A DNA stretch of 64,000 nucleotides from Ignavibacteriota bacterium (GTDB lineage Bacteria > Bacteroidota > Ignavibacteria > UBA10030): assembly GCA_963701295.1 (NCBI GenBank), contig OY969585.1, forward strand, positions 608,001 through 672,000, given 5' to 3'. Position numbers and translations under genes: made by a program. Shown here one piece after another: positions 14,687 through 58,646 of the stretch. How positions within the stretch are numbered: position 1 is the stretch's first letter; each line of letters opens with the position of its first letter. The notes under the pieces are model-generated. The model ran no database searches. It was given only the letters and a program-made list of their open reading frames with translations, and had not been told where the DNA came from.

Positions 14687-14743
14687 AAGGGATCACCGGA
14701 ATAAAATTCCAAATACGTTTCTCGATATCTCAAGAAAAAAGAT

Positions 14744-15643: not shown

Positions 15644-15921
15644 TCTAAATTATTGCCTCAATGTCGTAATATCATATCAATTCAGTCCACTAAGTTAATT
15701 GCTTCTTTCTATCAGTCTGCAAAAGTGTCCTATCTCTTGTTTAAATAGATAAACACTCTCAACATCCGATCAAATTCAAAACCATATCCTTGATTCTATG
15801 AGGGCTTTCATTATGATGATTCTGAGATGACAAAACAGAATCCCAGTTGATTGTTTATTGATTTATAGCGAAAGTTTGCTTAGGTTTTTAAAGTGTATCT
15901 CTGGACATATACATAAATCGA

Positions 15922-17001: not shown

Positions 17002-17002
17002 T

Positions 17003-18022: not shown

Positions 18023-18027
18023 TTTCG

Positions 18028-34520: not shown

Positions 34521-35591
34521 CTAAAACAAAAGAGATGGATTGAATTTATAGGGAATAAGATTACTCCAGGCTGTAGTGGTCATCATATAAAAGACGAGAT
34601 AGCCTATGACAAAGATATAACCAACGACGAACCTCGACAATCGATCGGGAATATTTTTGAAAACGATCGGCCACAAAAACACAGCGGCTACGTTGAAATA
34701 GAGACTATAACGAAGGAGACCGGATGGATTCGTACTTAATACCATCGAAACCACGCTTATCATCATGCCGAATAAATACATATTGAGGAACCTATCATAT
34801 TGGGCCCGATCGATATGGATAGATTTCTTAAAGAGGAAGAAAAAGATGCCTAACACAGAGGTGAAACCGATCATAAAGTATCCCCCACCTCTACCGACAG
34901 CTCCATAAGCTTCGTATCGTGTATCAATCGAAGAAGCAAACGCTAAGATATTTTCATAAAACACTGCCGAGGTGAGCCCTACTAATACAATGATCAGATT
35001 GATCCTGAATGTATTTGCCTTATTAAAAATAAAATACACCGGCAACATCATGATGGCTGTCTTGTGAAAAAGATAGGCGAGAAAAACATAGATGCAGTAT
35101 TTTATGAATTTCCTTTCCAATAACGGACTGAGCGCTAACGCGTAAATAGCACAGGCGATCCCCTGTCGAGCCCCATTGAGACAGAATGAATAAATTCCCA
35201 TAGCAATATAGACGAAGAATGAAATTTCAATTGCATCGGAATGTGCAACGATAGACCGTTGATAACAAATGACTACAATGATTGCAATAGTGAAAAAGAA
35301 AGTTATATATTCATTTGAAATGAAGTGTATCAGCCAAATCATGACCCAGAAACCATATTCTCCCATCTTTTTTCCAACAGTGTCGACATCTTCAAGGGTT
35401 TTCACTTTATTGAAATAGCTTACATAATCTCCCGTATCTGTTCCCACACTTCGATCTCGCAAACCTGCCACAAGAACCATCGAAGTGAAAGCAACACCGA
35501 GCAATAATCGCGACAGGATGACGGATTTTGATTTTCTTGCCAGAAATGCAGCCAGAACAACAATAAAGAGGTTTATAAAATAGACCAGCAT
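34521..35591 (-). CDS. wzy: EpsG-family polysaccharide polymerase (Wzy)
   Basis: Polytopic membrane protein with GLRD.SVGTDT..Y, E.GF, NGARQGIA and FHKTA. Confidence 0.8.
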   Translation of the reverse strand: MLVYFINLFIVVLAAFLARKSKSVILSRLLLGVAFTSMVLVAGLRDRSVGTDTGDYVSYFNKVKTLEDVDTVGKKMGEYGFWVMIWLIHFISNEYITFFFTIAIIVVICYQRSIVAHSDAIEISFFVYIAMGIYSFCLNGARQGIACAIYALALSPLLERKFIKYCIYVFLAYLFHKTAIMMLPVYFIFNKANTFRINLIIVLVGLTSAVFYENILAFASSIDTRYEAYGAVGRGGGYFMIGFTSVLGIFFFLFKKSIHIDRAQYDRFLNMYLFGMMISVVSMVLSTNPSGLLRYSLYFNVAAVFLWPIVFKNIPDRLSRFVVGYIFVIGYLVFYMMTTTAWSNLIPYKFNPSLLF

Positions 35592-36808: not shown

Positions 36809-38074
36809 CTATGCATTTCCACTATGACCGGTCGCTTGTTTCAAAGCTTCTTCAAGATACCGCAGCGATTTTGCACGCTCTCCCTCTAACATGGTTTCCG
36901 CTTTCGAAAAATCCATTTTCAACGGATCTTCAAGAATCGGCATTTCAGACTTCATCAGTCGTGATGTAAGCCCCAGGAGACTCAGAATACTATAGATGCG
37001 GGTGGCCATCGATGCCGTGCTAAAAGAACCGGGGCGTTCGAAAACATAGAACGGCCTCTTGAAGTTTATAGAAAATATAGTGCCATGAAACGAATCCGTG
37101 CAGACAAGACTTGCATTCTTTACAAGCCCCAGAAATTCTGCTGGGCCGGCATCACTGCAATTTATTGTGTTCGGTCCTTCCATATCACGGTGATCGCGAG
37201 AGACTACAACGAGGCGAAATCCTGTTTGATTACCCAATTTTATTGCGAGGTCCCTGTACACCTGTCCTTCACCTAAGAAATAACATAAGATATACGGTCC
37301 CTGTATATCCGGTTCTATGGCAATGTGATTCCATTGATCATAGTTTAACAACAATGTCGGGTCAAGAACAACTTCGGCATTTCTTCCAGTGAGTTCCTTT
37401 ATCAGATCAGCACCTTGTTTTTCCCGTGAAGATAAGTATGGGATACCATGAATGAATTCTGCCATCTCCGTGCGGAACTTATCAGGAATTTTCGGAATCG
37501 CGATACTGGGGGCATAGGAAATCCTTTTAGCCTTGGGAGCAAAATCCAGGAAATAGGCAGGTTCGTTTCGAGCCTGATCGGGATTCTTGCACATGAACGG
37601 ATTCCATATTTGATCGCTGCCACAAACATACGCATCGTACTGCGGGGAGGATTTTTTCAGTGCTTCGCTCAATGTATAATGATGTTCGGACAGTTTTATA
37701 TACTTACGACGAAAGGAATCAAATCTCGTCTTCCGCAATCCAATAGAGCCATGCGAATGCATAGGAGGCAAAACATCTCCACGATTCTTAATGAAAAGAC
37801 TAAAGTAGTACCGGAAATCCCGTATGTAGAGAGGCATCCGCATAATTCTTCGTCCTATTGACTTTACCAGATATCTTGTTTTCGAAGGAATAGGAGTTGG
37901 ATCAAAATCAATAATTTGACATTCGTAACCAAAACGATCGATTGTCTCTTGAAGTGCATAAGCCAAGAGCACTCCACCGATATTATCGACATAGTGGATC
38001 GTTATCATACCTATTTTTTTCTTTATACTAATTTCATATTCCTTTCGCTTTTTTGTCTTTTCATCCCGGCTCAT
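36809..38074 (-). CDS. Polysaccharide pyruvyl transferase family protein
   Basis: Motifs NIGGVLLAYAL, CGSDQIWNP, SYAPS, SSRE, VLDPTLLL and TDSFHGTIFSI. Confidence 0.88.
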   Translation of the reverse strand: MSRDEKTKKRKEYEISIKKKIGMITIHYVDNIGGVLLAYALQETIDRFGYECQIIDFDPTPIPSKTRYLVKSIGRRIMRMPLYIRDFRYYFSLFIKNRGDVLPPMHSHGSIGLRKTRFDSFRRKYIKLSEHHYTLSEALKKSSPQYDAYVCGSDQIWNPFMCKNPDQARNEPAYFLDFAPKAKRISYAPSIAIPKIPDKFRTEMAEFIHGIPYLSSREKQGADLIKELTGRNAEVVLDPTLLLNYDQWNHIAIEPDIQGPYILCYFLGEGQVYRDLAIKLGNQTGFRLVVVSRDHRDMEGPNTINCSDAGPAEFLGLVKNASLVCTDSFHGTIFSINFKRPFYVFERPGSFSTASMATRIYSILSLLGLTSRLMKSEMPILEDPLKMDFSKAETMLEGERAKSLRYLEEALKQATGHSGNA

Positions 38075-39428: not shown

Positions 39429-40421
39429 TCATCCACGTTTGACAGTGTTATCTGAGAGTTCTGTCAAGTGCAGTTTATCTCCATACTCAATTTCATATTG
39501 TGGGGGGGAAAATGGACCTGATCCACCGTGCGGATAAAATGTCATTTCACCGGCATAAACCTTACCACAAATATCATAAAGGTCAACTCGAACAAAGTCG
39601 AATGGACGTGACATTTTCCGAACGACTTCTATCATTTCCTCAAGGCATTTAGGCCGTGCCACTTTCTCATCAGAATTCTTTTTCACCAATTTCACAGGGA
39701 GCAAATTCCACTGTAGATCGTAGAAATTACGACGATGATCACCGAAACGATCAACATCAACATGAATCAGGAGCGGTTCCCCATTGAAGCACAAAAATTT
39801 GTAGTCCTTTGGTATTTGATTGTTGTCATCGAAGAGAACTTTTTCACATATAATACGTGGAGGAATATCCCTGTACGCCCACTCACAATCGAAGTAGTAA
39901 GCATTCACTTTTAAATGATGCTTCAAGATCCGCACTGCCTTTTTCTTGTCGAACGAGCTCTTGTCTAAACAGAAAACATTACCCCCGCTTGCATGGTTAA
40001 CCTTGAGCACGTAGGGAGCGGGAAGTTCATCAAACGGTATTTCGCTTGGTTGTTTATACACACCCAACAAGGGAATCAAATATTTTTCTCCAATTGTCTC
40101 CTTCACATATTCTCTTACAGCGTACTTATCGGCACACTTTACCATCAGAGGGTCGTGTTTGTGTAGTTTGATCCAAGCAATTTTCTCATTAAAAGTACGC
40201 GGGCTATCCAGATTTGGCGAAAAGCCGTAATTCTGAATGAAATGATCACTAACCACATCCCTTTCTCCTTCTCGTGCAATGCGCCTCTTCATCTTCCAAA
40301 TGTGGTACCGGTGATAGGGAAATTTTATATACGGATAAATAGTCCGACGAATTATGGAATCCAGCCCCTGCTGAATAATGGAAAAGACGCTTGAATTCTT
40401 CTTGATCACACGGGTTTCCAT
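39429..40421 (-). CDS. TupA-like ATP-grasp amidoligase
   Basis: Motifs PRTFNEKI.W.K, ADKYAVREYV, LKVNHASG, DYKFLCFNG, RVDLY and GEMTFYP.GG. Confidence 0.88.
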   Translation of the reverse strand: METRVIKKNSSVFSIIQQGLDSIIRRTIYPYIKFPYHRYHIWKMKRRIAREGERDVVSDHFIQNYGFSPNLDSPRTFNEKIAWIKLHKHDPLMVKCADKYAVREYVKETIGEKYLIPLLGVYKQPSEIPFDELPAPYVLKVNHASGGNVFCLDKSSFDKKKAVRILKHHLKVNAYYFDCEWAYRDIPPRIICEKVLFDDNNQIPKDYKFLCFNGEPLLIHVDVDRFGDHRRNFYDLQWNLLPVKLVKKNSDEKVARPKCLEEMIEVVRKMSRPFDFVRVDLYDICGKVYAGEMTFYPHGGSGPFSPPQYEIEYGDKLHLTELSDNTVKRG

Positions 40422-40648
40422 AAAAACATACCTTTCTTCATCCTTTGCATAGTCACATGAGAGTTTCGATACGAAAATAGCTGAACCTTAAAACAGCTAA
40501 TTTTTCTTGATGATTGCTCTCAACTTCAGGTTGGTGAATGATTAACATACGAACATCCCAATAATTTCCTCTTCAGTAATACGCTGCCTTTCATTGAAAT
40601 TCTCACGATGTGTAGAATCGATAGAATCTGAATTTCTACAGCGCAGAA

Positions 40649-41821
40649 TTAGCTCTTCTTTTTCATTGTCCGTTTTATCCAGTTTATGAACCGGTGTTGA
40701 TACCATGCGAGATAATAACAAATCCGCGGTACGAGACGAAAATCTTTTCTTCCAACCATAGCCTCGTACAGCGCTCGGTAAGAACCCGTTGGCTTTTTGT
40801 AAGCCAATACATACCCAACAAACCATTTTCTATTCTTTCTATAGAGATGGAGATCGAAAACGTTCTGATAAAGTTGAAGCTTGCCTAAGATATCCAGCGT
40901 CAACATAGTCCTCAGGCATTTTTCGCACATCGAGCAATTAGCATCCCCATTCACACAGACATTCAAATAACGATATGAAAGTGGAAATGCGACAACAAGC
41001 TTCGTTTTCTCTACTCGCGTATAACAAGTTCCCGTAGAAAAAAAGGTCAGCATTTCCGTCGATACCATAGGCAAGGAGAAAATATCATAGTCGCAAGATA
41101 ATTCGCGAACAAATTGAAAATCCCTAATACTACTGCCTGACGAACAATAGTAAGTCTTAAACAATTTCTGCAAAGCAAGGGCTGCTGAGACATTTGCAAA
41201 TGTGCTTGTAGCGGCAAAGGGTCTTTCCAATATTTCTTCCATATTAGAGTCTACGACTATAAGGGGCAATCCAAGTTCTTGCGCACATTGACGGACACGA
41301 TTGGTCCTTTCTTGAAACAGCTTCTGTGTCTTTTCAGGGTCGGTCCACAATGGGCTATGCCCACCAACGTTGAAAAACGCGCAATGAGTTAATCTATACC
41401 CCTTGGGTTGCCGCTCCGAAAGAAGATCTATAATTGTACTAAAGGAATCGATTCCACACGAAAGACCAGTTCCGACTCCTCCTGCATTCGAAAGAGGTGT
41501 TGAACTCACGGGACAATCGAAAGGAACCACGTGCCACTCTTTAAAAACATACACCATAGCTTTCTGAAGATAATTGGTTATGGTATAATACAAACGCTCC
41601 GATATCGGTACTTCCATCTTCACAGGTAGATTTCGCTTCATCGCATAGAAGAGCAAGGGAAGAATGAAAGCATCACCACGTTCATGACAGAAGTACTGTG
41701 CAAACTCAGGTGTTGTGGAGTACCACATTTCCTTTTTGACATTGTTCACCTCAAACACTGTCTTTAGTTTGACATTGCCATCGATGAGATTCTCAATTTC
41801 AGGCCGGCGTACAACTACCAT
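40649..41821 (-). CDS. Uncharacterised polysaccharide-locus protein with PP-loop-like motif and Cys cluster
   Basis: Motifs DAF, GLSCGIDS, FNVG.H, TRVEK and VC...NCSMCEKCLRT. Confidence 0.7.
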   Translation of the reverse strand: MVVVRRPEIENLIDGNVKLKTVFEVNNVKKEMWYSTTPEFAQYFCHERGDAFILPLLFYAMKRNLPVKMEVPISERLYYTITNYLQKAMVYVFKEWHVVPFDCPVSSTPLSNAGGVGTGLSCGIDSFSTIIDLLSERQPKGYRLTHCAFFNVGGHSPLWTDPEKTQKLFQERTNRVRQCAQELGLPLIVVDSNMEEILERPFAATSTFANVSAALALQKLFKTYYCSSGSSIRDFQFVRELSCDYDIFSLPMVSTEMLTFFSTGTCYTRVEKTKLVVAFPLSYRYLNVCVNGDANCSMCEKCLRTMLTLDILGKLQLYQNVFDLHLYRKNRKWFVGYVLAYKKPTGSYRALYEAMVGRKDFRLVPRICYYLAWYQHRFINWIKRTMKKKS

Positions 41822-41851
41822 CGTAATCCTAGATATTTCCTATTTGGGGAT

Positions 41852-42985
41852 TTATTTAATCTCGTAAGGATATATTTGCTTCCGTTTCTGGAACGACAAT
41901 ATGTGTTCATTTCGGATGATCCCATCATGTATATCAATTGCCCTATGAATTGTGTCATCCCTTTCCCATGATTTCGGACCTCGGGAAATAATATCAAGAA
42001 ACGGTAAAAGAGCTTTCGAAATCTCCCGGGATGCAGCATCCCATAAATATGTCGGAATATGGTCGACCGAGTAATACGAAATTCCGTTCATCAGTGTGAT
42101 AATCGGATCCGCGAATGTCGTCGGTTGTGCGAATGAAAAACCCATACCCTTATCGCAGCTTACATCGATGATAATGGTCCGTGGTTTCAGCGCTTTGATA
42201 GTTGAATCGTCAACGAAAATGAGAGGGCTATCGACATCCTGCAGAACACCATTGCAGATAATGTCTGCTTGCGCGAGTTCATCAATAAGAGGAATTATTT
42301 TACCATCGGGAAGCCGTGCCATAAGAAGCCCTCCCTCATCTATAAAAAAGTTGTTATAGTATACATCCGGATTCTGATCTGCGACCACATGAGACGGCCG
42401 CCGAGTATAGACCTGAATGTTGTTGAACCCTCGTCCTTGGAGAGCATAAATCGCACCTCTGCTGACAGATCCATATCCAAGAATTGCCATCGTTCTTCGC
42501 GGCCCATAATGGCCGTCGATCCCAAGAAGCTGAAGTGTATGAAGTACCGCCGCATATCCGGCTATCTCATTATTTTTATAGAAAATATGCATGAGCTTTT
42601 CACCACCGCTACTCCATTGATGCATCGATTCCCATGAAATCAACGTTAATTTCTGATCAATTGCGGCTTGTGCAATATTCCGTTGCTGTACACAGTGTGT
42701 CCAACCCCAGAGTATTTGATTATTTCTCATCTTTTTCAAATCCTCAATAACCGGCTTCGGCAACACTATGATATCACAGCGTTTAAATAATTCTTCTCTT
42801 TTGAGCATTCCACAACATTTTCCCAAAAAATATTCATTTGGATAACCGAACTCTTCTCCATACTTTTCTTCGAAGATTATGTTATTCCGAATTTCTTCCG
42901 GTATCCAAAGCAAGTGCTCCGGATAAATCGGTACACGTTTCTCATTTTCTTTGAATGAAGTTCTGATAACACCAATTGTTAACAT
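41852..42985 (-). CDS. ceo: N5-(carboxyethyl)ornithine synthase family (AlaDh/PNT superfamily opine synthase)
   Basis: Motifs KENEKRVPIYP, E.KYG..FG, LWGWTHCVQ, FYKNNEIAGY, GYGSVSRGA, IIDVSCD and YYSVDH.PT..W. Confidence 0.82.
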   Translation of the reverse strand: MLTIGVIRTSFKENEKRVPIYPEHLLWIPEEIRNNIIFEEKYGEEFGYPNEYFLGKCCGMLKREELFKRCDIIVLPKPVIEDLKKMRNNQILWGWTHCVQQRNIAQAAIDQKLTLISWESMHQWSSGGEKLMHIFYKNNEIAGYAAVLHTLQLLGIDGHYGPRRTMAILGYGSVSRGAIYALQGRGFNNIQVYTRRPSHVVADQNPDVYYNNFFIDEGGLLMARLPDGKIIPLIDELAQADIICNGVLQDVDSPLIFVDDSTIKALKPRTIIIDVSCDKGMGFSFAQPTTFADPIITLMNGISYYSVDHIPTYLWDAASREISKALLPFLDIISRGPKSWERDDTIHRAIDIHDGIIRNEHILSFQKRKQIYPYEIK

Positions 42986-43051
42986 AAAGACACGGGGAGA
43001 ATGAGTTGAAGAAAGGGCTATGGATAAAGGAAAAAATATAAAAGATTTTTT

Positions 43052-44575
43052 TTACTTCGACATTGTTGTATTCACTCGACGATTTCCGCCGGGGATTTTC
43101 ACAATTTTTCGATATGCTTTTTTGATAATCCCGTTCAAGAACACTCTATCAAATTCCACAAGGAGCTGTCGTCGCTCGTTCCTTCGCAAGCATCTATACA
43201 ACGCATCCAACATCTCTTGATCACCCGATCGCACAGCAAGATCAATACTTTCCCTGAAAAATGATTTTTCGATTTCGTCGGGAATATGACTTTTTCGAAT
43301 TATCCCGGCTGTAGGAAGAGGCGGAAATGGAGCATCGGAAACACCCAGCAATTTCAGAGGAATCATTGTGCGGAGACATTTTTCACACTTACCACAGTTG
43401 ATATTCATGTCTTGGAAACACACCCGTAAATTCGCCAGCGCCGATTCGCTCTCACATATCTTCTCAATTTTCTCTGTCCGTCTCGCCTCACAGCCGTCGT
43501 GAATGATCTCAGGACAATCATTTGACCATAGAGGATCTATCAGGGGATGCGAACCCAGCGGGATCAGCTGAGTATAAGAGAAAGCCGAGGGAACGTAGAC
43601 ACGATGGAATCCAAGAAGAAGCCCAACGCTGGCTAGGACACTTCCTTGTGTGAGAAGTCTACTCAGGTTATAGCGATATCCGAATGGATAATGATTATGT
43701 TCAACCGGGATAAGGGCCTTACCAAAACTCTGAATGAAATGGGTGTTACGCTCGATCGCCATTTTGAATGTCCCAGTGGACTTACTCGATATTTCTTGTG
43801 GACACGCATCCTCCAGCAAGAATCGGTTCAAAACCTTAACGTCTTCTCCTTGAGGATTCTTTTCAAGTAACTGTTTCGTTTGGGGCCGCAGGTTAACCCC
43901 GTTAAAGCGCTGCGATTCGTAGATTACTGGCCCAGCGATCAAAGAATTGAGATCTCTGATTAATGCCGTTTCAACCATACCAGGATCTGAACCGGAGATT
44001 CGATAATTTGATAACGAGTGCAAAGTTGTTTTCGAAAGCATTCCTTGCAGGAACGCGTAGAGTGCGTTCCAGGGCATCATCAGTCTGTAGGCAAATTGCC
44101 CGAGATCACGAATGTCACCAACCGAAAATGCCGGGCCGTCCCCATTGTTTGCATAGAAATCGAATCCATGCATAAAAACCACATGGCTTATTTCTTCCTT
44201 GCGCTTGAGAAAAGTATATTCACTGTCCACACCTCCAGAAAAAAAAGACATACCACCGGCATGAAGCGGCTCAACAGGGGATGTCGTCGCATCGATGGGG
44301 ATTATCTTCAACTCTTCAGGATTCCATGAGTGGAAGATTTCCTGGAGACGGAAAGCATTCTCAAGTAACTTCAGAGAAACCGGCATACTTGCATCAATCT
44401 CAAGCTTCTCGCCCTGTCTCATCGCCGGAAGAAGTGCGGAGGCTAAGAAAGCATCGCCAGATTTCGAAACTGCGTACGATTTGGGTACTCGATACCACAA
44501 TCGATACCCATCCACTTCTGCGGATACTTCTATCGTAGCTGCTTGTTCTTTGATTTCCCTGTTTGCAACGCGCAT
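43052..44575 (-). CDS. Uncharacterised PP-loop/Cys-cluster protein (same family as 40649-41821) with a ~127-aa inserted domain
   Basis: Motifs GDAFL, FFSGGVDS, HGFD, GSHPLIDPLWS, HDG..RTEK and VC...NCGKCEKCLRT. Confidence 0.7.
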   Translation of the reverse strand: MRVANREIKEQAATIEVSAEVDGYRLWYRVPKSYAVSKSGDAFLASALLPAMRQGEKLEIDASMPVSLKLLENAFRLQEIFHSWNPEELKIIPIDATTSPVEPLHAGGMSFFSGGVDSEYTFLKRKEEISHVVFMHGFDFYANNGDGPAFSVGDIRDLGQFAYRLMMPWNALYAFLQGMLSKTTLHSLSNYRISGSDPGMVETALIRDLNSLIAGPVIYESQRFNGVNLRPQTKQLLEKNPQGEDVKVLNRFLLEDACPQEISSKSTGTFKMAIERNTHFIQSFGKALIPVEHNHYPFGYRYNLSRLLTQGSVLASVGLLLGFHRVYVPSAFSYTQLIPLGSHPLIDPLWSNDCPEIIHDGCEARRTEKIEKICESESALANLRVCFQDMNINCGKCEKCLRTMIPLKLLGVSDAPFPPLPTAGIIRKSHIPDEIEKSFFRESIDLAVRSGDQEMLDALYRCLRRNERRQLLVEFDRVFLNGIIKKAYRKIVKIPGGNRRVNTTMSK

Positions 44576-46103: not shown

Positions 46104-47603
46104 TTATTTTGCCCGAAATTTCGTTAACAGCGTACTTACACTAAACCCCGATTTTTGTGACAACTGCCTGAGGCAGAGATACGTGACAGGACCCAGAACA
46201 ACAAGATTTATCGCCCAGGTAATAATCGGAATGACATTGAAACTGCAGTTGAGCATCAGGATTACCATAACGGCGGTCGAAAGAAGTACCAACATGAAAA
46301 CGTAGCGATTCCAGGTGGCACCAATCAATCCGTGCATAATGAAGTACATCATCACGGTGTAAGAAAAAAGGACAATCGTAAAAGCGATGCCGGTGCCAGT
46401 AAGCCCCCAGAGCCATGAACAAAAGAAAACAGCAATAACTTGGCCAGCAGCAAGCAACAGTTCAGTAAAAAAATACAACTGGCCTTTACCTTTTGCCAAT
46501 ATCACAAAACCGAGCGGCCAAGAGAAGACCTGACCAAGGACGCCGAAGAGGTTCCAACGGAGGATCGGAATAGCAGCAGTGAACGATTTAGTATAGAAGA
46601 TGCGAATAACCAGAGGTGCGAAGACCATCATTGCAGCCAATGCTGGTAATGCGAGTAGTATTGATATCTCTGCTTGCTCATTAATCATTTGGCGAACTTT
46701 TGTATTGTCACCGGATACGGCAGTCACGCGTGGGTAGTAATCGGTTCCCATAGCGTTAAGCACGAAGCCGACCAGGACTCCGGAGAGGCCGAAGGCAGCA
46801 TGGTAGAGGCCGACACCTTCGAGACTGAACTGACGTACCAGCAAAATCCGAATCAAATATTGCCCTACGGTGGCTACCAGACCCGCGCCCATAAAATTGA
46901 TTCCTAGCGTCAGCAAACGCTGTGCCTCATCGCGGCTGTTGCGCCACGTTAATGCAACTGGCACAATTGGTACACGGCGCGCGAACCACCACGAAGATAC
47001 AAGCGAAGCGATTGCAGAAAGAATAAGACTAGGCACAATCCCTTTCTGTCCCCACAAATAATAACACGGGATACTGATGAGTACGCCATTGACTGTGCCG
47101 ATGACATTGATTTTTGCGATATCGCTAATACGGCGTGTTCCTTGCAAGACACAGCCTTGACCAGATGTGATAGAACTGAGAAGGATAGTAATTCCAAGAA
47201 ATGCAATTGGGAGTGCGTACGTGTCACTGTTAAAAGTGATCCATGATATTGGGATACAAAAGAGAATCATTGCCAGCATCCCGAAGCTGCCGGTCAGCCA
47301 GACTATTCTTCGTAGAGTAATTACCGTACGAGCAATCCGTTCCTCATCGCTTGTACCCACTGACTCAGCGATCTGACGAACGCCGCTACTCCCGAGCCCC
47401 ATCCCTGAAATTCCGCACACCAGTGAGGTGATTTGAGAATATGTTCCTAGTAGACCGACTCCGGCAGGACCGATAAGCATGGCAACAAATTTGGTGCGCA
47501 CCATCGCGATCAGAATTTTGATGAACGATGCCCCACCAATTAACGAAGTCGATTTCAGTATGTTACGGTAGCTACTGCTGTCGTGTTTACTCTCAAGAGA
47601 CAC
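46104..47603 (-). CDS. wzx: Wzx flippase (O-antigen translocase), copy 1
   Basis: Polytopic membrane protein with RTKFVA..IGP.GVG, GLGSSGVRQIA, MGTDYYPR and SWPLGF.ILAKG. GTG start follows AGGAG. Confidence 0.9.
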   Translation of the reverse strand: MSLESKHDSSSYRNILKSTSLIGGASFIKILIAMVRTKFVAMLIGPAGVGLLGTYSQITSLVCGISGMGLGSSGVRQIAESVGTSDEERIARTVITLRRIVWLTGSFGMLAMILFCIPISWITFNSDTYALPIAFLGITILLSSITSGQGCVLQGTRRISDIAKINVIGTVNGVLISIPCYYLWGQKGIVPSLILSAIASLVSSWWFARRVPIVPVALTWRNSRDEAQRLLTLGINFMGAGLVATVGQYLIRILLVRQFSLEGVGLYHAAFGLSGVLVGFVLNAMGTDYYPRVTAVSGDNTKVRQMINEQAEISILLALPALAAMMVFAPLVIRIFYTKSFTAAIPILRWNLFGVLGQVFSWPLGFVILAKGKGQLYFFTELLLAAGQVIAVFFCSWLWGLTGTGIAFTIVLFSYTVMMYFIMHGLIGATWNRYVFMLVLLSTAVMVILMLNCSFNVIPIITWAINLVVLGPVTYLCLRQLSQKSGFSVSTLLTKFRAK

Positions 47604-47672
47604 TAAAATTCTTTACTCCTGTTGTTTTGATGAGCGATTATTGCGCACCTTTCTTTGCGATCCGTTTTTTCT

Positions 47673-48015
47673 TCATTCTTGCTTCGTATGAGCCGTTGAT
47701 AACCTATTACTTTCTATATAATCATCACTATCAACAAATGCTGTATGTTCACCTTGAGCATGTCTCATCCCGATGTTCCTGGCAGAACTGGCTCCACCAT
47801 TATTTTTTGTGATGACTTTTAATCCGTGAATCCAATTTTTCATATTCATCACAAATATCACCACTACGATCAGACGAACCATCATCCACCAAGATAATTT
47901 CAGTATCATTCAACGTCTGACCGACAAGACTATCAATACACTTACGAATCCCAGCCTCCACGTTATGAACAGAAACAACAATACTAACTTTTGGCGACAT
48001 ATTTCCGTGATCCAT
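47673..48015 (-). pseudogene. Frameshifted, truncated GT2 glycosyltransferase
   Basis: KVSIVVSVHNVE...LVDDGSSDRSG in one frame continues as NGGASSARN...FVDSDDYIES in another frame, then stops after ~110 codons in total. Confidence 0.85.
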
Positions 48016-48051
48016 AATTGATTCTTAATTTGTAGACTGAAGTAAAACCGC

Positions 48052-48978
48052 TCATCGTAGGTTGTCGATCGTGATTTTGAGGTATAGAACCTTCTCTCGA
48101 AAAGAAAAAAGTTTCGACGGAAGAATATTACACATGTAATAAACAGTTTTGTGACGACCTGAATAAAAACGGAATATTATTATTGTTCTGGTAAGTGTGT
48201 TTCTTAATATTCTTTCTACGCGGTTTTTTATCGTAACAAGACCATCATCCCTGGCAAGAGCAATCATAAAATCTCTTGAATTTTGTCTATACATACTATA
48301 AAACATGGCCAATTTTGGTATTGTCGAGAGGGAGGTTTCGTTTTTCCTGTAGTACACTCCTACCGAATGATGGCGATATACTGATCCGATAAGCAAAGAA
48401 CGGAAAACCAGAGGAGCATCCTCTGCTTGGCACCAAGACGGAAGTGGTCCAAAGTATTCGAATATTTTTTTTCTATAGGCCATTGCGGAACCATGGATGG
48501 GCTGCTTATTCCTGTTGCCATAATCCTCTAATTTATATTTGCCTTCGATCTTCTTGTCATTTTTTTTGGGCAAGATATTGCCTTTAATATCTATACTTAT
48601 GTGCTGCATGCTTACTGCCAATATATTCTGGTTCTTCGAAAATATCTCCCACGTTTCTTTAGTGCGATCCGATAGAGAGATATCATCTCCCGCTGCAACA
48701 ACAACGATCTCAGCAGTAGCTATTTTAAATACCTTGTTTATATGAGCACACAATCCGAGATTTGGCTCATTACGGTTGAGAATGATTGTATGTGGCCCTT
48801 CATACTCATCCGCCATTCGAGACATGATCTCGTAAGTTCGATCAGAAGAACCGTCGTCAGAGAGGATGATCTCGAGCGGTGAATAAGTCTGTGACAGGGC
48901 ACCCCGTACGGCCTCTTCGATGAATTGTTCCTGATTGTAGGCAAAGAGGGCAAATGTGATGAGTGGTCGTTCTTTCAT
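48052..48978 (-). CDS. GT2 glycosyltransferase
   Basis: Motifs FAYNQE, SDDGSSD, NLGL..H.N, AAGDDIS, AED and YYR. Confidence 0.9.
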   Translation of the reverse strand: MKERPLITFALFAYNQEQFIEEAVRGALSQTYSPLEIILSDDGSSDRTYEIMSRMADEYEGPHTIILNRNEPNLGLCAHINKVFKIATAEIVVVAAGDDISLSDRTKETWEIFSKNQNILAVSMQHISIDIKGNILPKKNDKKIEGKYKLEDYGNRNKQPIHGSAMAYRKKIFEYFGPLPSWCQAEDAPLVFRSLLIGSVYRHHSVGVYYRKNETSLSTIPKLAMFYSMYRQNSRDFMIALARDDGLVTIKNRVERILRNTLTRTIIIFRFYSGRHKTVYYMCNILPSKLFSFREKVLYLKITIDNLR

Positions 48979-49057
48979 AATGTATCAATTCCTTGACCCG
49001 GCGATACGCCTGTCGATTAGTAATTCAAACATCGTTGCTTGAGGCTCAATTGACACA

Positions 49058-50557
49058 TTACTTTGTCCTAAACCTATCGAACAAGGCGTGCAAACCGATC
49101 TCAGATTTTTGTGACAATTGCCTGAGGCAGAGGTACGTTACAGGGACTAAGACGACAATATTGATCGCCCATTCAACAATAGGGCTGACGTTGAGACTGC
49201 AGTTGAGCATCAGGCTCACCATAACGGCGCTCGCAAGAAGTACTAGTTTAAGAGTGCGATAGGTCCAGTTGGTGCCAGCCACCCTGCGTACCACAATGAG
49301 CATCAGCGCAGTGTAGAAAACATAGAGAGTCAGGAAAGCGATCCCAGTACCAATGAGTCCCCAAATCAACGCGAAATAGTAAGTCGCTCCAACAAGCAAA
49401 ACGCAAGCAAAAAGTTCGGTGAGGAAGTACAATTGTCCTTTCCCTTTTGCCAGTATTATGAAGCCCAGCGGCCATGAAAAGACACGACCGAGAACGCCGA
49501 GAATGCTCCAACGCAGTATAGGAACAGCAGCCATAAAGGATTCGGTATAGAAGACACGGATGACTAGTGGTGCGAAGACCATCATCGCCGCTAAGCCCGG
49601 TAGCGAGAGTAGTATAGATATCTCCGCTTGCTCGTTAAACATTCGGTGAACTTTAACATTGTCGCTGGATGCGGCTGTAAGACGTGGGTAGTAATCGGTC
49701 CCCATAGCGCCGAGCACAAAACCTACAAGGATACCAGAGAGGCCGAATGCTGACTGATAGATGCCGACATCATTGAGACCGAATTGACGGATTAAAAAAA
49801 TCCGGATCAGGTAATTCGACAACTGTGCAATGAGACCTGCACCTACAAAGCTAAGCCCTAACGCTAACAGTTGGCGCGCCTCATCACTTGCAGCATGCCA
49901 CTTCAATGCAATAGGCATAATCGGTACGCGGCGTGCAAACCACCACGATGTTATCAACGAAGCTATCGCATAGAGGATCAGGCTGACAACAATTCCCTTT
50001 AGTCCCCAAAAATAGTAACATGGGATACTAATAAGTGTACCGTAAACTGTACCGAGGACACTAATTTTGGCAATGTCGCCGATCCGTCGAGTCCCTTGCA
50101 GTACACAACCCTGGCCAGAAGCAATTGCACTGAGAAGGATAGTGATTCCAAGAAACGCGATGGGCAGCGCATACGAGTCGCTATTAAATGTGATCGTTGA
50201 GATCGGGATACAGAAGAGGATCATGACCAGCATCCCGACGCTACCGGTTACCCAGACTGTCCTTCGCAGAGTGAACACCGTTCGGGAAATTCGTACCTCA
50301 TCGCCTGTACCGACTGCTTCGGCAATTTGACGAACCCCGCTGCTCCCGAGCCCCATCCCTGACATCGTACCCACCACTGATGTGATCTGACTATAAGTCC
50401 CTATGAGACCGACGCCGGTCGGACCGATCAGCAAGGCAACGAACTTCGTGCGCACCATCGAGATCAGGATATTGATAATCGATGCACCACCGATCAACGA
50501 AGTTGATTTCAGTATACTTCGGTAGCTGCCACTATTGGATTCATTTTGCGAATCTAC
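49058..50557 (-). CDS. wzx: Wzx flippase, copy 2 (start codon uncertain)
   Basis: Colinear and highly similar to copy 1. Homology extends 20 codons upstream of the TTG at 50497, to a GTA codon at 50557. Confidence 0.85.
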   Translation of the reverse strand, partial: VDSQNESNSGSYRSILKSTSLIGGASIINILISMVRTKFVALLIGPTGVGLIGTYSQITSVVGTMSGMGLGSSGVRQIAEAVGTGDEVRISRTVFTLRRTVWVTGSVGMLVMILFCIPISTITFNSDSYALPIAFLGITILLSAIASGQGCVLQGTRRIGDIAKISVLGTVYGTLISIPCYYFWGLKGIVVSLILYAIASLITSWWFARRVPIMPIALKWHAASDEARQLLALGLSFVGAGLIAQLSNYLIRIFLIRQFGLNDVGIYQSAFGLSGILVGFVLGAMGTDYYPRLTAASSDNVKVHRMFNEQAEISILLSLPGLAAMMVFAPLVIRVFYTESFMAAVPILRWSILGVLGRVFSWPLGFIILAKGKGQLYFLTELFACVLLVGATYYFALIWGLIGTGIAFLTLYVFYTALMLIVVRRVAGTNWTYRTLKLVLLASAVMVSLMLNCSLNVSPIVEWAINIVVLVPVTYLCLRQLSQKSEIGLHALFDRFRTK

Positions 50558-50620: not shown

Positions 50621-51724
50621 TTAAAATTGGCACGATGCCCGAATGGCAGAAATCACCGATTCTGCTTGTCCAAGATTCATATTTGGTCCCATAGGCAGGC
50701 TCAACACCTCGGCATGAATTTTCTCTGTAATCGGAAAAGCACCTCGCCCATAGCCAAGTCCGTTGTAAGCTGGCTGCATGTGCGGCGGGATAGGATAATG
50801 AATCATCGTCCCTATGCCACGTTCAGTCAAACGGCGTGCTAATTCATCTCGATTCGGGTGCCGAACAATATATACATGCCATACAGATTCACAGCCCTCA
50901 ACCACAGTAGGTAACACGAGATCTTTTATCCCTCCAAGCCCATCGGAATACGCCTTTGCAATTTTGTTCCTCAGGGAATTGTCGCCATCAAGCAGAAGTA
51001 ACTTGGCGCGTAAAAAAGCAGACTGTAACTCGTCAAGACGTGAGTTGAACCCTTTCGCTTCATTATGGTACTTGATACGCGATCCGTAGTTGCGTAATAC
51101 ACGGATCTTATCGGCCAACTGAGAATCGTTGGTAGTTACTGCTCCACTATCTCCAAGCGCTCCCAGATTCTTGCCCGGATAAAAGCTGAAACCTGCTGCA
51201 TCGCCAAGCGAACCTGTCCGCTTTCCGGCATATGCTGCACCATGAGCCTGAGCAGCGTCTTCCAATATTTTTATTCCGTACCGTTTTCCAATTTCGGTTA
51301 TCTTTGACATCTCAGCTGCCTGCCCATAGAGGTGAACTGGAATAATAGCTTTGGTTCGTGGTGTAATAGCAACTTCAATCAGCTCCGGATCGATATTGAA
51401 AGAACTCTCACGGGGTTCCACCGGGATTGGCGTTGCTCCTGAATATGTTACAGCCAGCCAAGTTGCAATATAAGTATTGCAGGGCACAATCACTTCATCA
51501 CCCGGCCCGATATTCCATGCTCGCAATACGAGATGTAATGCCTCAAGACCATTTCCGACGCCGATGCAATGCTGAACACCACAGAAAGCTGCAAATTCGT
51601 TCTCAAAAGCCTCGCATTCCTTGCCAAGAATGAACCAACCACTTTCTAACACCCTGTCAAGTGCTTGATGAAATGCTTCACGTTGTCGGAGATTAATTGT
51701 TTTAAGGTCAAGAAAGGGAATCAT
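50621..51724 (-). CDS. fdtB: dTDP-3-amino-3,6-dideoxyhexose transaminase (FdtB/QdtB-like)
   Basis: MIPFLDLK start after AAGGA. Motifs [29 protein letters not shown] and NSRLDELQ. Overlaps the wxcM-like gene. Confidence 0.85.
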
Positions 51725-52664
51725 TTTTTCCTTTTTGTTGTTTGGCATATTCTAAAAAATGATTGTAATCACGGATATAGTCATTTGCATCGTAGGGATG
51801 TGACATCAGAACGACCAACACTGCATCTTTTGAATATTTGTATTGAGTCGTCCAAACACAGGGTTGGACATGTATACCAAGAGAGGGAGTGTCCAACTTC
51901 ACCTCTGCTCTGTTGAGACCATCATCTAACTGCACAACAATTTGGCCTGCAACGCAGAATAATAATTCATGACATTCTTTGTGCGCATGCTCTCCTCGAA
52001 CTTCTTTTGACGGAACATCAAATACCCAGAAACATCGTTTGACGGTAAACGGTAAATCTTTCTCGAATTCAACAACTGATAAACTCCCTCGGAGATCTAC
52101 AAATTTAGGTAATTTATAAATACAGCATCCACCGACACCCGTATCGATTCGCTTGTCTTTATCCACATCGGAGATGTTTACTGTAGAGAACTTCGTCTGT
52201 GTTGTAGAATCATATCCATTAATTACACCCGGATTTCCAACTACAATTGCATTGGGAGGTACATTACGCAAAACGACCGATCCAGCGCCGATCATAGCAT
52301 TCATGCCTATTGTCACACCGGGCAGTATGGTGGCGTTCGCGCCAATAGACGCACCTTGATGGATCGTCGTTAATAAGAGCTTGAAGTGTTTTTTACTTCG
52401 TGGATATAAATCGTTCGTGAATGTAACGTTCGGCCCGATAAAAACATCATCTTCAATACGCAATCCATCCCAAATCTGCACGCCCGATTTGATCGTCACA
52501 CGATCGCCAATTACAACATCGTTTTCAATCAAGCAATGAGAACAAATATTTACATCGTTCCCGATACGTGCACCGGGCAGGATAACTACATATTGCCAAA
52601 TGCGGGTACTGGATCCAATGGCCTTGGTCTGGACATCAGCGAGTGGATGAATAAAATTATTCAT
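51708..52664 (-). CDS. wxcM: Bifunctional N-acetyltransferase / 3,4-ketoisomerase (WxcM-like; FdtC+FdtA)
   Basis: N-terminal hexapeptide domain ([15 protein letters not shown]) fused to a cupin (DLRGSL, RGEHAH). Confidence 0.88.
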
Positions 52665-52860
52665 ATTTTTTTCTTTCGATGCTGAGTCGTTGAGTTCATT
52701 AATCGTAATACAATCATTGGCATTGGGGATCTAATGCCCCCACCAATATTAAAAAGTCGATTTCGAGATGATGGTGGGAGTAACCAGAAGATTGGTTGGC
52801 AGCGCTACTGCCTGCGCCCCAAACTTGACAAAAGCACTCCAGAGGATTTTCCAAAAATAA

Positions 52861-53778
52861 TTAGTCGGCTTTTCTTTTCTGCATCTTGCTTCGTATGAGC
52901 CAATTGTCGTAGTCGGAATACAATTTGATTAACGAGCTGTTAAAATATATCCCACACAACTCAAAATATTCGTTTATTGGAACAGAAAAAAATACTTCAA
53001 TATATGCAGGGAGATTTGTATTGATAAACTTCGAATTATAGGCGTTCAAACCTTGAGAATAATGCACATAATCTCTCACCACATTTTGCGACTTCCATAA
53101 TCTATTTAATCTATTCTTTGATTCCATCACATTCGATATATCGATTGCAATATTAGGAATTAAATCCGACCAAACTTGATATGCCCATATTTCACATTTC
53201 ATACTTGTCAAGTGAGGCTTTGCATTCCAGAAGAGATGATTCGCACGCCGATGTTCGGGATGATTGTCCAATAGAAATGGAATAAATATAATATCAGGAT
53301 TCTTTTGTTTGATGAGATCTGCAAAGAATGCTGCATTTGTCATATCAATAGGAGTGCCCCCATCAGGATATCTAAGAAAAATCGGGTCACCCCCGATCAT
53401 TTTCCATACCTCTCTTGCCTCTTTCTCACGACATAAAAGCATTTCACGTTCGGGAATTTTGCTGGATGCGAGAGAACCATCTGTAATATAAACACAAGTT
53501 ATTTTCGCTCCTGCGGCGGCAGATTGAATCAGCGTTCCACCTGCGCCAATCGTCTCATCATCTTGATGAGGAGCAATAACAAGAATCCGTTTTCCTTGTC
53601 CTGGTGCTTCCCGTACCAGCGTGTTTAGATTGATTTTAAATCGATCGGTTGTAAGGACTTTTACACACGTATCGATGTCACGGATTGAAATCAAATCTCT
53701 GACGACCCATTTGTATGACCTTCTTCCCGCAAACCAACGAATTCGCCTCAATAGATACTTTTTGATTCCTTCAATCAT
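52861..53778 (-). CDS. PIG-L/LmbE-family deacetylase
   Basis: Motifs APHQDDETIGAGG, TDGS, R..EA, PDG and HPEH. Confidence 0.85.
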   Translation of the reverse strand: MIEGIKKYLLRRIRWFAGRRSYKWVVRDLISIRDIDTCVKVLTTDRFKINLNTLVREAPGQGKRILVIAPHQDDETIGAGGTLIQSAAAGAKITCVYITDGSLASSKIPEREMLLCREKEAREVWKMIGGDPIFLRYPDGGTPIDMTNAAFFADLIKQKNPDIIFIPFLLDNHPEHRRANHLFWNAKPHLTSMKCEIWAYQVWSDLIPNIAIDISNVMESKNRLNRLWKSQNVVRDYVHYSQGLNAYNSKFINTNLPAYIEVFFSVPINEYFELCGIYFNSSLIKLYSDYDNWLIRSKMQKRKAD

Positions 53779-56176: not shown

Positions 56177-57211
56177 TTATTTGATATTCAACGAACAAAA
56201 CCACTCAACAGTTTCCTTCATTCCGCTCTTTACCACGTGGGAAGGAAGGTATCCCAACAATTCTTTTGCTTTTGTGATATCAGCTTGAGAATGTCGAACA
56301 TCACCTGGCCGAAAGGAACCAATGTTTGGCTCTATAGATTTGATCTTCTGGTCATACTCTCCCAACAAGTCCCTTATCATAAAAAATAATTCTTTTAGTG
56401 TTGTCCTGCCGCCGACTGCAACATTATAGACCTGATTCACCGCACTTTTATTCTCTATCGTAGCAGCCAGAATATTTGCCTGTATCACATTATCGATGTA
56501 ACAGAAGTCTCTGCTTGTTTCTCCATCACCATAAATTGTCGAGGCTTTTCCATCCAGCAGTTCACCGATCCATTTGGGAATCACGGCTGCATAAGCTCCG
56601 TCGGGATCCTGTCGCCGACCAAAAACATTGAAGTAACGTAAACCGATGGTCTCAAATCCGTAACAACGGGCAAATACATCGGCATAGAGTTCGTTGACAT
56701 ATTTTGTAACCGCATATGGAGAAAGAGGCTTCCCTATCTTATCCTCTATTTTTGGAAGACCAGGATGGTCTCCATAGGTTGAGCTGCTGGCGGCATACAC
56801 AAACCGTTTCACCTTATTGTCGCGAGCAACAACCAGCATATTCAGCATACCAGTAATATTATTTTCGTTCGTAAAAATTGGGTTCGCAATCGATCGCGGC
56901 ACCGAACCAATAGCAGCCTCGTGCAAGACAAAGTCGACATCTGTGCAGGATTGCTGACAGGTCTCGAGATTCCGGATATCTCCTTCGATGAAATTGAACT
57001 GGGACCACTGCTTTTCACTGACTAGCGATTTTACATCGTATAGATTTTTTTTATGCCCAGTTGAAAAATTATCCAATCCGATAACGACCTGATCGAGCTT
57101 CAGGAGTTGCTCGAGAAGATTGGAGCCGATAAAACCTGCCACACCGGTCACGAGCCATCGCTTTGGCTCCTTTTTTAATTGTCGTATCATTTCTTCGTAC
57201 TTCGTCGCCAT
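56177..57211 (-). CDS. wbpP: UDP-GlcNAc/GlcNAcA C4-epimerase (WbpP/TviC-like)
   Basis: Motifs [36 protein letters not shown] and [22 protein letters not shown]. Confidence 0.9.
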
Positions 57212-57338: not shown

Positions 57339-58646
57339 CTATGCTTGATGTACGAACGATATACGATGGTCAGCAATATTCCGTGTATTGAGGATGGGGA
57401 TATTGAAAGATGTGAAATCAATTTTTTTATATTCACTGTGGGCTGTTGCTATAAGGATAAGATCATACTTGTTATTGACATCAACGGATTTTTTTCCCGC
57501 ATAACAAGACCACTCTCGTGAAGGTCGAATCATCGGTACATAGGGATCATTATAGCTGACGATAGCCCCATGTTTTTCTAACTTCTCCATCAAATGATAG
57601 GATGGTGATTCACGATCGTCATCGACATTTGCCTTATATGCCAAACCAAGGATCAAGATTTTCGAACCTTTGAGCGGTTTTTTGTACTCATTCAGTACTT
57701 CCATCGCTCGCTGTACAACAAAGTCCGGCATCGCGCTGTTAATTTCTCCGGCAAGTTCGATGAACCGCGTTGTCATTCCGTACTCGTGCGCTTTCCATGT
57801 GAGATAGAACGGATCTATCGGAATACAATGTCCACCGAGCCCCGGTCCCGGATAGAATGGCATAAAACCGAATGGCTTTGTTTTCGCGGCATCGATGACT
57901 TCCCAAATGTCAATCCCCATTTTCATCAACGTTACCTTTAATTCATTTACTAACGCGATATTAACCGCACGAAAAATATTTTCCAGCAGCTTTGTCGCCT
58001 CCGCTGCCCTCGTATTCGAAACCGGGATGGTCCGAACGACAACTTGCTGATACAATTTCTCTGCGACAACCAATCCTTCGTGTGAAGTTGCACCGACTAC
58101 TTTAGGAATCGTTTCCGTGCGGTAATCTATATTGGCAGGGTCTTCACGTTCCGGCGAAAATGCAGCAAAGAAATCCCTGTCCACTTTCAATCCCTTCTCC
58201 TCAAGAATGGGAATCATCACTTCATCGGTCGTACCGGGATAAGTTGACGACTCTAGAACGATCAATTGTCCTTTTCGTATATAGGGGGCAATTGCTTTAC
58301 ATGATGCAACAATATACTGGACATCCGGTTCACGATTTTTATTCAGAGGGGTTGGCACTGCTATAAGGATGACATCGCATTCACGCGCACGAGCGAACCC
58401 TGCCGTCGCAGAAAACAATCCACTCTTCACGGCTCTTTGGATACGCTCCGACGGAATATGTTTGATATATGATTCACCACGCATCAGGGCATCGATTTTC
58501 TTCATATCAATGTCGAGCCCGATTGAAGTGAAACCCTTTTCGGCGAAACAGAGAATTAATGGAAGACCAACATAGCCGAGACCGATGACCCCAATCACCG
58601 CTTTTTTCTGTTCAATTTTTTGAAAAAGTTCTTCGTGGATTGTCAT
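57339..58646 (-). CDS. UDP-N-acetylhexosamine 6-dehydrogenase (WbpA/TviB/WecC family)
   Basis: Motifs GLGYVGLP, VPTP, ESSTYPGTT, SPEREDP, KLLENIFR, GGHCIPIDP and DDRESP. Confidence 0.9.
   Translation of the reverse strand: MTIHEELFQKIEQKKAVIGVIGLGYVGLPLILCFAEKGFTSIGLDIDMKKIDALMRGESYIKHIPSERIQRAVKSGLFSATAGFARARECDVILIAVPTPLNKNREPDVQYIVASCKAIAPYIRKGQLIVLESSTYPGTTDEVMIPILEEKGLKVDRDFFAAFSPEREDPANIDYRTETIPKVVGATSHEGLVVAEKLYQQVVVRTIPVSNTRAAEATKLLENIFRAVNIALVNELKVTLMKMGIDIWEVIDAAKTKPFGFMPFYPGPGLGGHCIPIDPFYLTWKAHEYGMTTRFIELAGEINSAMPDFVVQRAMEVLNEYKKPLKGSKILILGLAYKANVDDDRESPSYHLMEKLEKHGAIVSYNDPYVPMIRPSREWSCYAGKKSVDVNNKYDLILIATAHSEYKKIDFTSFNIPILNTRNIADHRISFVHQA

Follow-up and report, generated by a model that had tools for sequence, protein, structure and literature searches.

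A Ceo-like dehydrogenase and a predicted amide ligase as a candidate two-gene core for opine decoration of bacterial surface polysaccharides

What does a relative of N5-(carboxyethyl)ornithine synthase (Ceo) do in the middle of a polysaccharide gene cluster? This question is raised by a 64,000-nucleotide stretch of the genome of an Ignavibacteriota bacterium (assembly GCA_963701295.1, contig OY969585.1, positions 608,001 to 672,000; here called the window), in which four consecutive co-directional genes encode a PP-loop/Cys4 protein (protein A), a Ceo-like dehydrogenase, a second PP-loop/Cys4 protein (protein B) and a TupA-like ATP-grasp protein. A check of the open reading frames (ORFs) of the window found all four present and intact on the minus strand at exactly the coordinates of Table 1, separated by 66, 30 and 227 bp and flanked by glycosyltransferases (GT) of families GT2 and GT4. 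This is the arrangement described in an earlier note on this DNA, which read the four genes as one module that makes an opine and amide-links it to a uronic acid of the repeat unit. Ceo of Lactococcus lactis (also CEOS; EC 1.5.1.24) uses pyruvate, ornithine or lysine, and NADPH. Our analysis points to a smaller core: judging from family, motifs and gene context, we think it fairly probable that the dehydrogenase makes an N-(1-carboxyethyl) amino acid, an opine, and that the TupA-like protein links this opine to a uronate as an amide.

The evidence that carries this reading is a neighbourhood survey of the dehydrogenase family. Loci were drawn from 76 genome contigs, the best 80 of at least 553 confirmed metagenome matches, named plasmid and E. 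coli records, and further genomes; 169 remained after removal of duplicates, identical proteins and ORFs shorter than 300 amino acids. Twenty-one of them fall into two groups, that of the window (n = 17) and a gammaproteobacterial group (n = 4), only two loci of the latter having come from genome samples of 401, 401 and 1. An amide-ligase-type gene lies within 6 kb of the dehydrogenase gene at 19 of these 21 loci, as compared with none of the other 148. When only loci with at least 6 kb of DNA are counted, the ligase is found at 16 of 16 loci of the two groups versus 0 of 82 others, and all 16 also carry genes of the wzx or GT type; among the other 148, a glycan gene occurs within 6 kb at just one. 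The partners at the 19 loci are TupA (10), RimK-like ATP-grasp proteins (6) and AsnB-like proteins (3). In the window's group the distribution is 10 TupA, two RimK-like and three AsnB-like, with no ligase at two loci that are contigs of 1.9 and 2.4 kb, and in the gammaproteobacterial group a RimK-like ATP-grasp gene and wzx are present at all four. This use of three ligase types suggests that a function has been kept rather than one cassette. A partial gene dropped from the set (L074) likewise has a RimK-like neighbour and wzx. Thus, the association of ceo homologues with ligase genes in polysaccharide loci that the earlier note anticipated is a property of these two groups and not of the family at large.

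Because the ligase profiles had been seeded from the same loci, neighbouring proteins were also scanned with Pfam (147 proteins, then 57 of the 104 left over, and 38 of 44 from metagenome loci). Among the neighbours scanned, no ATP-grasp amide ligase or AsnB-type gene was detected beyond the two groups and L074; an argininosuccinate synthase was present in two kin loci outside the groups. In addition, of the 17 loci in the window's group, eight entered through a metagenome scan that used the alignment of the other group, and none of these eight served as a seed for the hidden Markov models (HMMs). TupA is found in six of these eight and was Pfam-confirmed for L102 (whose protein is that of L101), L119, L146 and L148.

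The dehydrogenase itself (PF05222 AlaDh_PNT_N plus PF01262 AlaDh_PNT_C) resembles Ceo more than alanine dehydrogenase (Ald), as the earlier note had proposed. It is 30.4% identical to a Ceo-annotated copy from L. lactis versus 22% to three Ald proteins, and scores 61.6 bits with the alanine dehydrogenase equivalog TIGR00518, for which the cut-off is 391.85. Unlike Ald, it has GWxH, YKNxxxAGYA, GxGxVxxGA and a basic post-Rossmann motif in common with Ceo-annotated proteins of Lactococcus and Vagococcus (GWTH, YKNNEIAGYA, GYGSVSRGA and YTRR in the window; GWTH, YKNSFYAGYA, GSGNVAQGA and YYRK in the Ceo-annotated proteins), and it carries VDHIP (VDHxP) where Ald has VANMP and TRR where Ald has LD. 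The basic loop in place of the Ald aspartate suggests an NADP-type cofactor, NADPH. Pfam, alignment and structural model all indicate the two-domain AlaDH/PNT fold with its conserved Arg, Lys and His; R17, K77, H97 and D274 are invariant across 28 close relatives, and in the alignment K77 is no more than one residue away from the lysine of Ald. We take the R17-type arginine to be the keto-acid residue and the lysine and histidine to be catalytic.

These features place the dehydrogenase beside Ceo but not within it. In both trees (FastTree and IQ-TREE), the Ceo-annotated proteins branch as sister to the dehydrogenase family in its entirety, with Ald as the reference (SH-aLRT, the Shimodaira-Hasegawa-like approximate likelihood ratio test, 100). 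The window's protein sits on a long separate branch and has 377 residues, as compared with about 310 in the Ceo-annotated proteins, which are database-annotated copies and not the assayed K1 protein. The dehydrogenase is thus built like Ceo without being its orthologue. Its model (predicted local distance difference test, pLDDT, 91.6) matches AlaDH best (Z 32.3, root-mean-square deviation (rmsd) 3.0, 345 residues aligned), followed by transhydrogenase; saccharopine dehydrogenase (Z 24.5, rmsd 3.5, 313 aligned) and lysine-ketoglutarate reductase (Z 24.4, rmsd 3.3, 303 aligned) also match, with weak sequence similarity (E 0.23-0.25), these two enzymes lying outside the trees. A distant paralogue is encoded in the same genome (G000:C1:1341070-1341852), and 40 relatives of the host hold distant matches only (21-33% identity). 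The family has 4,182 database matches, many of them labelled alanine dehydrogenase or Ceo.

The TupA-like protein, by analogy with its family, is likely an amide ligase. It matches PF14305 at 181 bits (cut-off 25) within a surface-polymer locus, is a single copy in its genome and keeps D280, E292 and their neighbours, which are invariant in six TupA proteins of the surveyed loci; no sequence relative of it was found in the PDB. TupA is rare in the background, with one occurrence in 150 other genomes of the host's class. The closest described enzyme is the C-terminal, TupA-like amidoligase domain of Cj1438 from the capsule locus of Campylobacter jejuni HS:2, which amidates the C6-carboxylate of glucuronic acid (PMC11800379). 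The two are likened by description: Cj1438 is fused to a GT2 and uses a small amino alcohol, whereas the window's TupA is free-standing and its amine would be an opine.

In the pathway that we propose, the dehydrogenase would reductively couple the side-chain amino group of a basic amino acid to pyruvate at the expense of NADPH, as its family and motifs suggest. Lysine is favoured as the amine only because carboxyethyl-lysine uronamides are known products. TupA would then use ATP to activate the C6 carboxyl of a uronate as an acyl-phosphate, which the free alpha-amine of the opine would attack, as Cj1438C and the known structures lead one to expect. The acceptor would be an N-acetylhexosaminuronate (HexNAcA) supplied by the 6-dehydrogenase and 4-epimerase of the window (57339-58646 and 56177-57211), and the unit would be exported and polymerised by Wzx and Wzy, whose genes are present and whose coupling to the modification is presumed. 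The 6-dehydrogenase scores above the TIGR03026 cut-off, and UDP-HexNAc dehydrogenase models (E 1e-78 to 5e-64) outscore UDP-Glc models (E 3e-45 or weaker). Its gene, with that of the TviC-like 4-epimerase beside it, is on the same strand about 13 kb upstream; membership of the same operon, as stated in the earlier note, is suggested by co-orientation only. An N-alpha-acylated N-epsilon-carboxyethyl-lysine has two carboxylates and one ammonium, so the zwitterionic capsule envisaged earlier becomes a unit that would bear both charges and be net anionic.

Several points weigh against this proposal. The reaction and the polymer structure are predictions from genes, folds, residues and context. The best PDB match of the dehydrogenase by both structure and sequence score is alanine dehydrogenase, and only 30% identity and a length difference of about 65 residues connect it with the Lactococcus Ceo-annotated proteins. 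The ligase HMMs were seeded from the very loci that were counted, and the Pfam scans covered part of the other loci. Nor are the loci independent, as kin inflate the counts (L009-L011, L146/L156, L098/L119). The window's group forms one branch at 0.999 in FastTree but has an SH-aLRT of 53 in IQ-TREE (its parts 95 and 95), and the gammaproteobacterial group has an SH-aLRT of 71 in IQ-TREE. The AsnB-like partner has a weak GATase_7 match, and glycan loci often contain genes of this kind. TupA-like proteins need not act on polysaccharide, since CfmP acts on fimbriae (PMC12632600). A uronate dehydrogenase falls within the fetched flanks of few loci: the window, L005, where a 59% identical homologue of 57339-58646 lies two genes after the Ceo-like and TupA genes, and two of the four gammaproteobacterial loci (L001 and L182), where ugd and gla are within the fetched DNA. 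The named homologues from Providencia, Shewanella and Edwardsiella were surveyed as protein sequences, so any link between gene and opine-bearing structure in these genera would be one of genus and not of strain. Finally, the absence of a ligase at 148 of the 169 family loci implies that the family has another main role.

This last point also bears on the suggestion in the earlier note that the locus reveals a physiological role for Ceo. As an explanation of Lactococcus Ceo itself this was rejected: three Ceo-annotated plasmid copies viewed lie outside polysaccharide loci, and the ligase context is missing from 148 of the 169 family loci. Most of these 148 loci stand alone in varied contexts and many phyla (e.g. 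L023, L025, L027, L028, L042, L046 and L071), and a downstream methyltransferase gene is common to seven of them.

Are the PP-loop proteins part of the same pathway? Proteins A and B are distant paralogues that both keep an SxGxDS PP-loop and a C-x6/7-NCxxCxKC motif (SGGVDS and C386/C394/C397/C400 in A; SCGIDS and C289/C296/C299/C302 in B), invariant or nearly so in their family; the PP-loop and four-cysteine motifs are present in 130 and 135 of 145 family representatives. No Pfam, NCBIfam or PADLOC profile matched either protein. The QueC profiles PF06508 and TIGR00364 recognise neither, TIGR00364 reaching E 0.11 in two of 17 PP relatives, and the surrounding genes are glycan genes without queuosine-pathway context. 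By structure, the AlphaFold model of protein B (pLDDT 95.2) is nearest to QatC (Foldseek E 1.2e-5), Cap9 (Z 12.2, rmsd 2.9, 169 aligned) and QueC (Z 12.1, rmsd 3.2, 177 aligned), with which the PP proteins share a PP-loop core and four cysteines. They differ from these in having 12-16% identity, an extra N-terminal domain of about 110 amino acids, a glycan context and membership of an unnamed family. Proteins of the QueC family couple a nucleobase to the N-terminus of proteins (PMC13279940). The ATP-dependent epimerase MurL was not among the structure or profile matches, in libraries that may not include it. In the ESM Atlas, protein B falls in unnamed clusters, the nearest named ones being DUF6395 at 0.90 and QueC at 0.88; against the PDB, alignment A1 found no sequence relative and alignment A4 weak PP-loop matches only.

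Protein A has an insert of about 125 amino acids (residues ~140-268) that is single in the genome and for which no Pfam match and no usable ESM Atlas match was found. Over its whole length, protein A is 46% identical to L007:7890-9413, a protein that has the same insert (37% identity there) and is encoded upstream of a Ceo-like gene; the insert is apparently also present in a 508-amino-acid protein, L227:9039-10565. The PP family is large, with 8,218 representatives at E ≤ 1e-10 (about 8,000 clusters at 50% identity), and a search in the phylum of genome G1155 found it in one of 301 genomes, a number too small for statistics. Matches also occur on contigs of giant-virus metagenome-assembled genomes (MAGs; L268-L270, L274-L278, L287).

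The distribution of these genes argues against the fixed four-gene module of the earlier note, which we rejected. PP genes accompany the dehydrogenase at four of the 21 loci and are absent from 17. We also viewed 14 PP loci that had been found independently (eight plasmid records hand-picked from lists of 11 and 26, plus six genome regions): a polysaccharide pyruvyl transferase gene (PF04230) lies within two genes at six of the 14, and a Ceo-like or TupA gene at none. Among 34 PP loci on viral contigs, pyruvyl transferase matches were found at two (one weak), TupA at one and a Ceo-like gene at none. Among 23 longer family members, four carry a fused PF04230 domain and two a fused GT2. Many longer members are tandem duplications in which the first copy is degenerate; an N-terminal copy without the PP-loop is fused to an intact one in P0368, P0369, P0372, P0379, P0383, P0385, P0406, P0407, P0467 and P0472. 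Tandem gene pairs are frequent as well, a hint that these proteins may work as a dimer. Because PP genes occur at so few dehydrogenase loci and elsewhere go with pyruvyl transferases, we conclude that the core has two genes and that the two QueC-like PP-loop genes are probably an accessory, separable add-on.

It is less likely, and we put it forward tentatively, that all four genes act in one pathway in this organism, in which the carboxyethyl group of the opine would be amidated or epimerised in a further step by the PP-loop enzymes. A gene of the protein A type lies directly upstream of the dehydrogenase gene at all four loci that have both (window, L007, L107, L148), the genome of L007 (a MAG) has no PF04230 match, and both R and S forms of carboxyethyl-lysine occur in nature. 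The window, however, encodes a PF04230 protein of its own, two genes beyond TupA, and the counts given above speak for pyruvyl transferases as the usual company of PP genes. This reading is compatible with the two-gene core, and its likelihood is not to be added to that of the core. A related and doubtful idea is that the QueC-like family adenylates pyruvate-derived carboxyls wherever glycans carry them, be they set on oxygen by a pyruvyl transferase or on nitrogen as in an opine, alongside the Ceo-like and TupA opine amide, so that two undescribed pyruvate-based chemistries would meet at this locus. Here the PP enzymes might, as an optional step, adenylate a group placed by the PF04230 protein or the opine itself, in order to amidate the carboxyl or to invert the R/S carboxyethyl centre. 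Such a role would explain both the neighbours of PP genes, be they pyruvyl transferases or Ceo-like, and the two forms of carboxyethyl-lysine.

The proposed product of the two-gene core is of a type already known from sugar chemistry. Opine-amidated O-antigens have been known for some twenty years (structure papers of 2003-2004): a carboxyethyl-lysine galacturonamide is described in Providencia rustigianii O14 (PMC10609480), and one in Shewanella fidelis KMM 3582 is named by a title in a reference list. Dehydrogenase homologues occur in these genera, and the window would differ in using a HexNAc uronate in place of the galacturonoyl residue. Named proteins of the gammaproteobacterial group come from Providencia rettgeri, Edwardsiella tarda, Shewanella, Aeromonas, Vibrio and Serratia; those from the first five are homologues at about 42% identity. 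An E. coli plasmid capsule cluster combines wecA, the ATP-grasp gene, the dehydrogenase gene, wzx, GT genes, wzy, a gla-like NAD-dependent epimerase gene and a nucleotide-sugar dehydrogenase gene. The dehydrogenase-ligase pair is present in five of 5,426 E. coli genomes, and the one chromosomal copy viewed (L090:17983-24731, NZ_CP148570.1) lies in a remnant broken by insertion sequences (IS), where TupA and wzx are present as fragments. There, the ATP-grasp and dehydrogenase pair is intact within the IS-riddled glycan-cluster remnant, in a tRNA-Phe island. In the open full-text literature, where most carbohydrate journals are missing, we found no gene assignment for opine-amidated O-antigens: the available text of a Proteus O-antigen paper (PMC5560731) assigns no gene to substituents that are amino acids or opines, that of PMC7685785 lists amide-linked amino acids without an opine route, and that of PMC6033044 and PMC4575208 does not cover Ceo.

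The same chemistry offers a different acceptor. The opine could be joined to an amino sugar by way of its own carboxyl, or the carboxyethyl group could sit on a different amine, the activation being carried out by TupA or a PP-loop enzyme; P. alcalifaciens O35 carries alanopine on 4-amino-4,6-dideoxyglucose (Qui4N; PMC10609480) and Proteus N-(1-carboxyethyl)ethanolamine phosphate. The window does encode an aminotransferase, an FdtA-type isomerase/acetyltransferase and a PIG-L deacetylase, and a DegT-type cassette adjoins the TupA genes in L007, L008 and L102. We consider this unlikely, since the tested TupA-like enzyme activates a uronate carboxyl and since L001 has ugd and gla and no sugar aminotransferase in its annotated cluster.

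Less likely again is that the two enzymes, instead of adding a single side group to the repeat, act on a protein or assemble a teichuronopeptide-like polymer, a peptide or polyamide. Two TupA genes flank or follow the dehydrogenase gene in L007, L008, L119, L146 and L156, and may make two different amide bonds. PGA_cap (CapA-family) genes lie near the dehydrogenase gene at three loci of the window's group (L004:6244-7398, L006:8770-9957 and L092:1485-2426), and CfmP is an example of a TupA-like protein that modifies fimbriae. Phage relatives of the dehydrogenase (viral contigs L237-L255) mostly follow a conserved gene for a protein of about 363 amino acids that has an N-terminal 'KLFEEF'-like leader and gave weak ATP-grasp matches in the three of three scanned; no glycan genes were detected beside these phage relatives with the profiles used. 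Against such a role stand the wzx and GT-type genes at every one of the longer loci of the two groups and the single TupA of the window.

It is improbable that the dehydrogenase is simply an alanine dehydrogenase, or an enzyme of the saccharopine type, and provides TupA with a common amino acid; the alanine dehydrogenase reading was rejected. The best PDB matches and many database names do read alanine dehydrogenase, and alanine uronamides are known (PMC10609480), but the TIGR00518 score, the 22% identity to Ald and the VDHxP and TRR motifs all point elsewhere. The genome has a separate distant paralogue, and a dedicated alanine supply would be superfluous.

The two core genes lie in a cluster of some 41 kb (62117 to 20662) whose genes run in one direction and include wzc, a wza-like gene, a NusG-type gene, two wzx, an EpsG-type wzy, several GT genes, the PF04230 pyruvyl transferase gene, amino-sugar genes and an initiating transferase gene (Table 1). 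The two wzx genes (46104-47603 and 49058-50497) are 70.3% identical, which suggests a local duplication or two merged clusters. The genome is one contig of 3.64 Mb, and the GC content of the four genes, overall and at third codon positions, equals the genome level (0.42), giving no sign of recent foreign origin. A promoter and terminator scan was at chance level (30 versus 29.0). Por-secretion C-terminal domains were among the Pfam matches of the window's proteins, which would fit a host of Bacteroidota type. Between two PglD-type acetyltransferase genes and the initiating transferase gene, the segment 28095-30350 holds a FemAB-like GNAT gene, for which a further amino-acid transfer step is possible, and a gene for a 376-amino-acid protein without a Pfam match. 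By eye only, an ORF resembling a restriction endonuclease and, after it, one resembling a DNA methyltransferase (SPPY motif) are seen at 10778-12770, and plus-strand genes at 13157-20064, for an AMP-binding enzyme, a PrmC-like methyltransferase, an NAD-synthetase-like PP-loop protein and AsnB-like proteins, converge on the end of the polysaccharide cluster.

Table 1. Features of the window discussed in the text, with predicted roles.
Feature	Position	Strand	Length	Profile matches and predicted role
PP-loop/Cys4 protein A, QueC-like	43052..44575	-	507 aa	insert of ~125 aa; probably accessory
Ceo-like NAD(P)H dehydrogenase, AlaDH/PNT superfamily	41852..42985	-	377 aa	PF05222+PF01262; predicted opine synthase, core gene
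PP-loop/Cys4 protein B, QueC-like	40649..41821	-	390 aa	probably accessory
TupA-like ATP-grasp protein	39429..40421	-	330 aa	PF14305, 181 bits, E 3e-53; predicted amide ligase, core gene
GT2	44859-45899			flank of the four-gene set
GT4	38146-39384			flank of the four-gene set
Polysaccharide pyruvyl transferase family protein	36809..38074	-		PF04230, 126 bits; probable partner of the PP-loop proteins
Nucleotide-sugar 6-dehydrogenase, UDP-HexNAc type	57339..58646	-		PF03721/PF00984/PF03720, TIGR03026 above cut-off; predicted uronate source
TviC/WbpP-like 4-epimerase	56177..57211	-		NF011728, 499 bits (under cut-off of 760); predicted to lead to UDP-GalNAcA
Aminotransferase, FdtA/acetyltransferase fusion, PIG-L deacetylase	50621..53778	-		PF01041, PF05523+PF00132, PF02585; amino-sugar route
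EpsG-family Wzy polymerase	34521..35591	-		PF14897
Two Wzx flippases around a GT2	46104..50497	-		PF13440/PF01943

The logic of making an amine and then joining it to a uronate with an ATP-grasp enzyme is already established, so the locus would be a variant of known systems and not a new kind of system. What the Ceo-like and ligase pair offers is a set of candidate genes for a decoration known from the sugar chemistry of Providencia and Shewanella. If our reading is true, the two-gene signature would predict opine decoration from genomes across several phyla, and it would give a first function to part of a family of several thousand proteins now labelled alanine dehydrogenase or Ceo.

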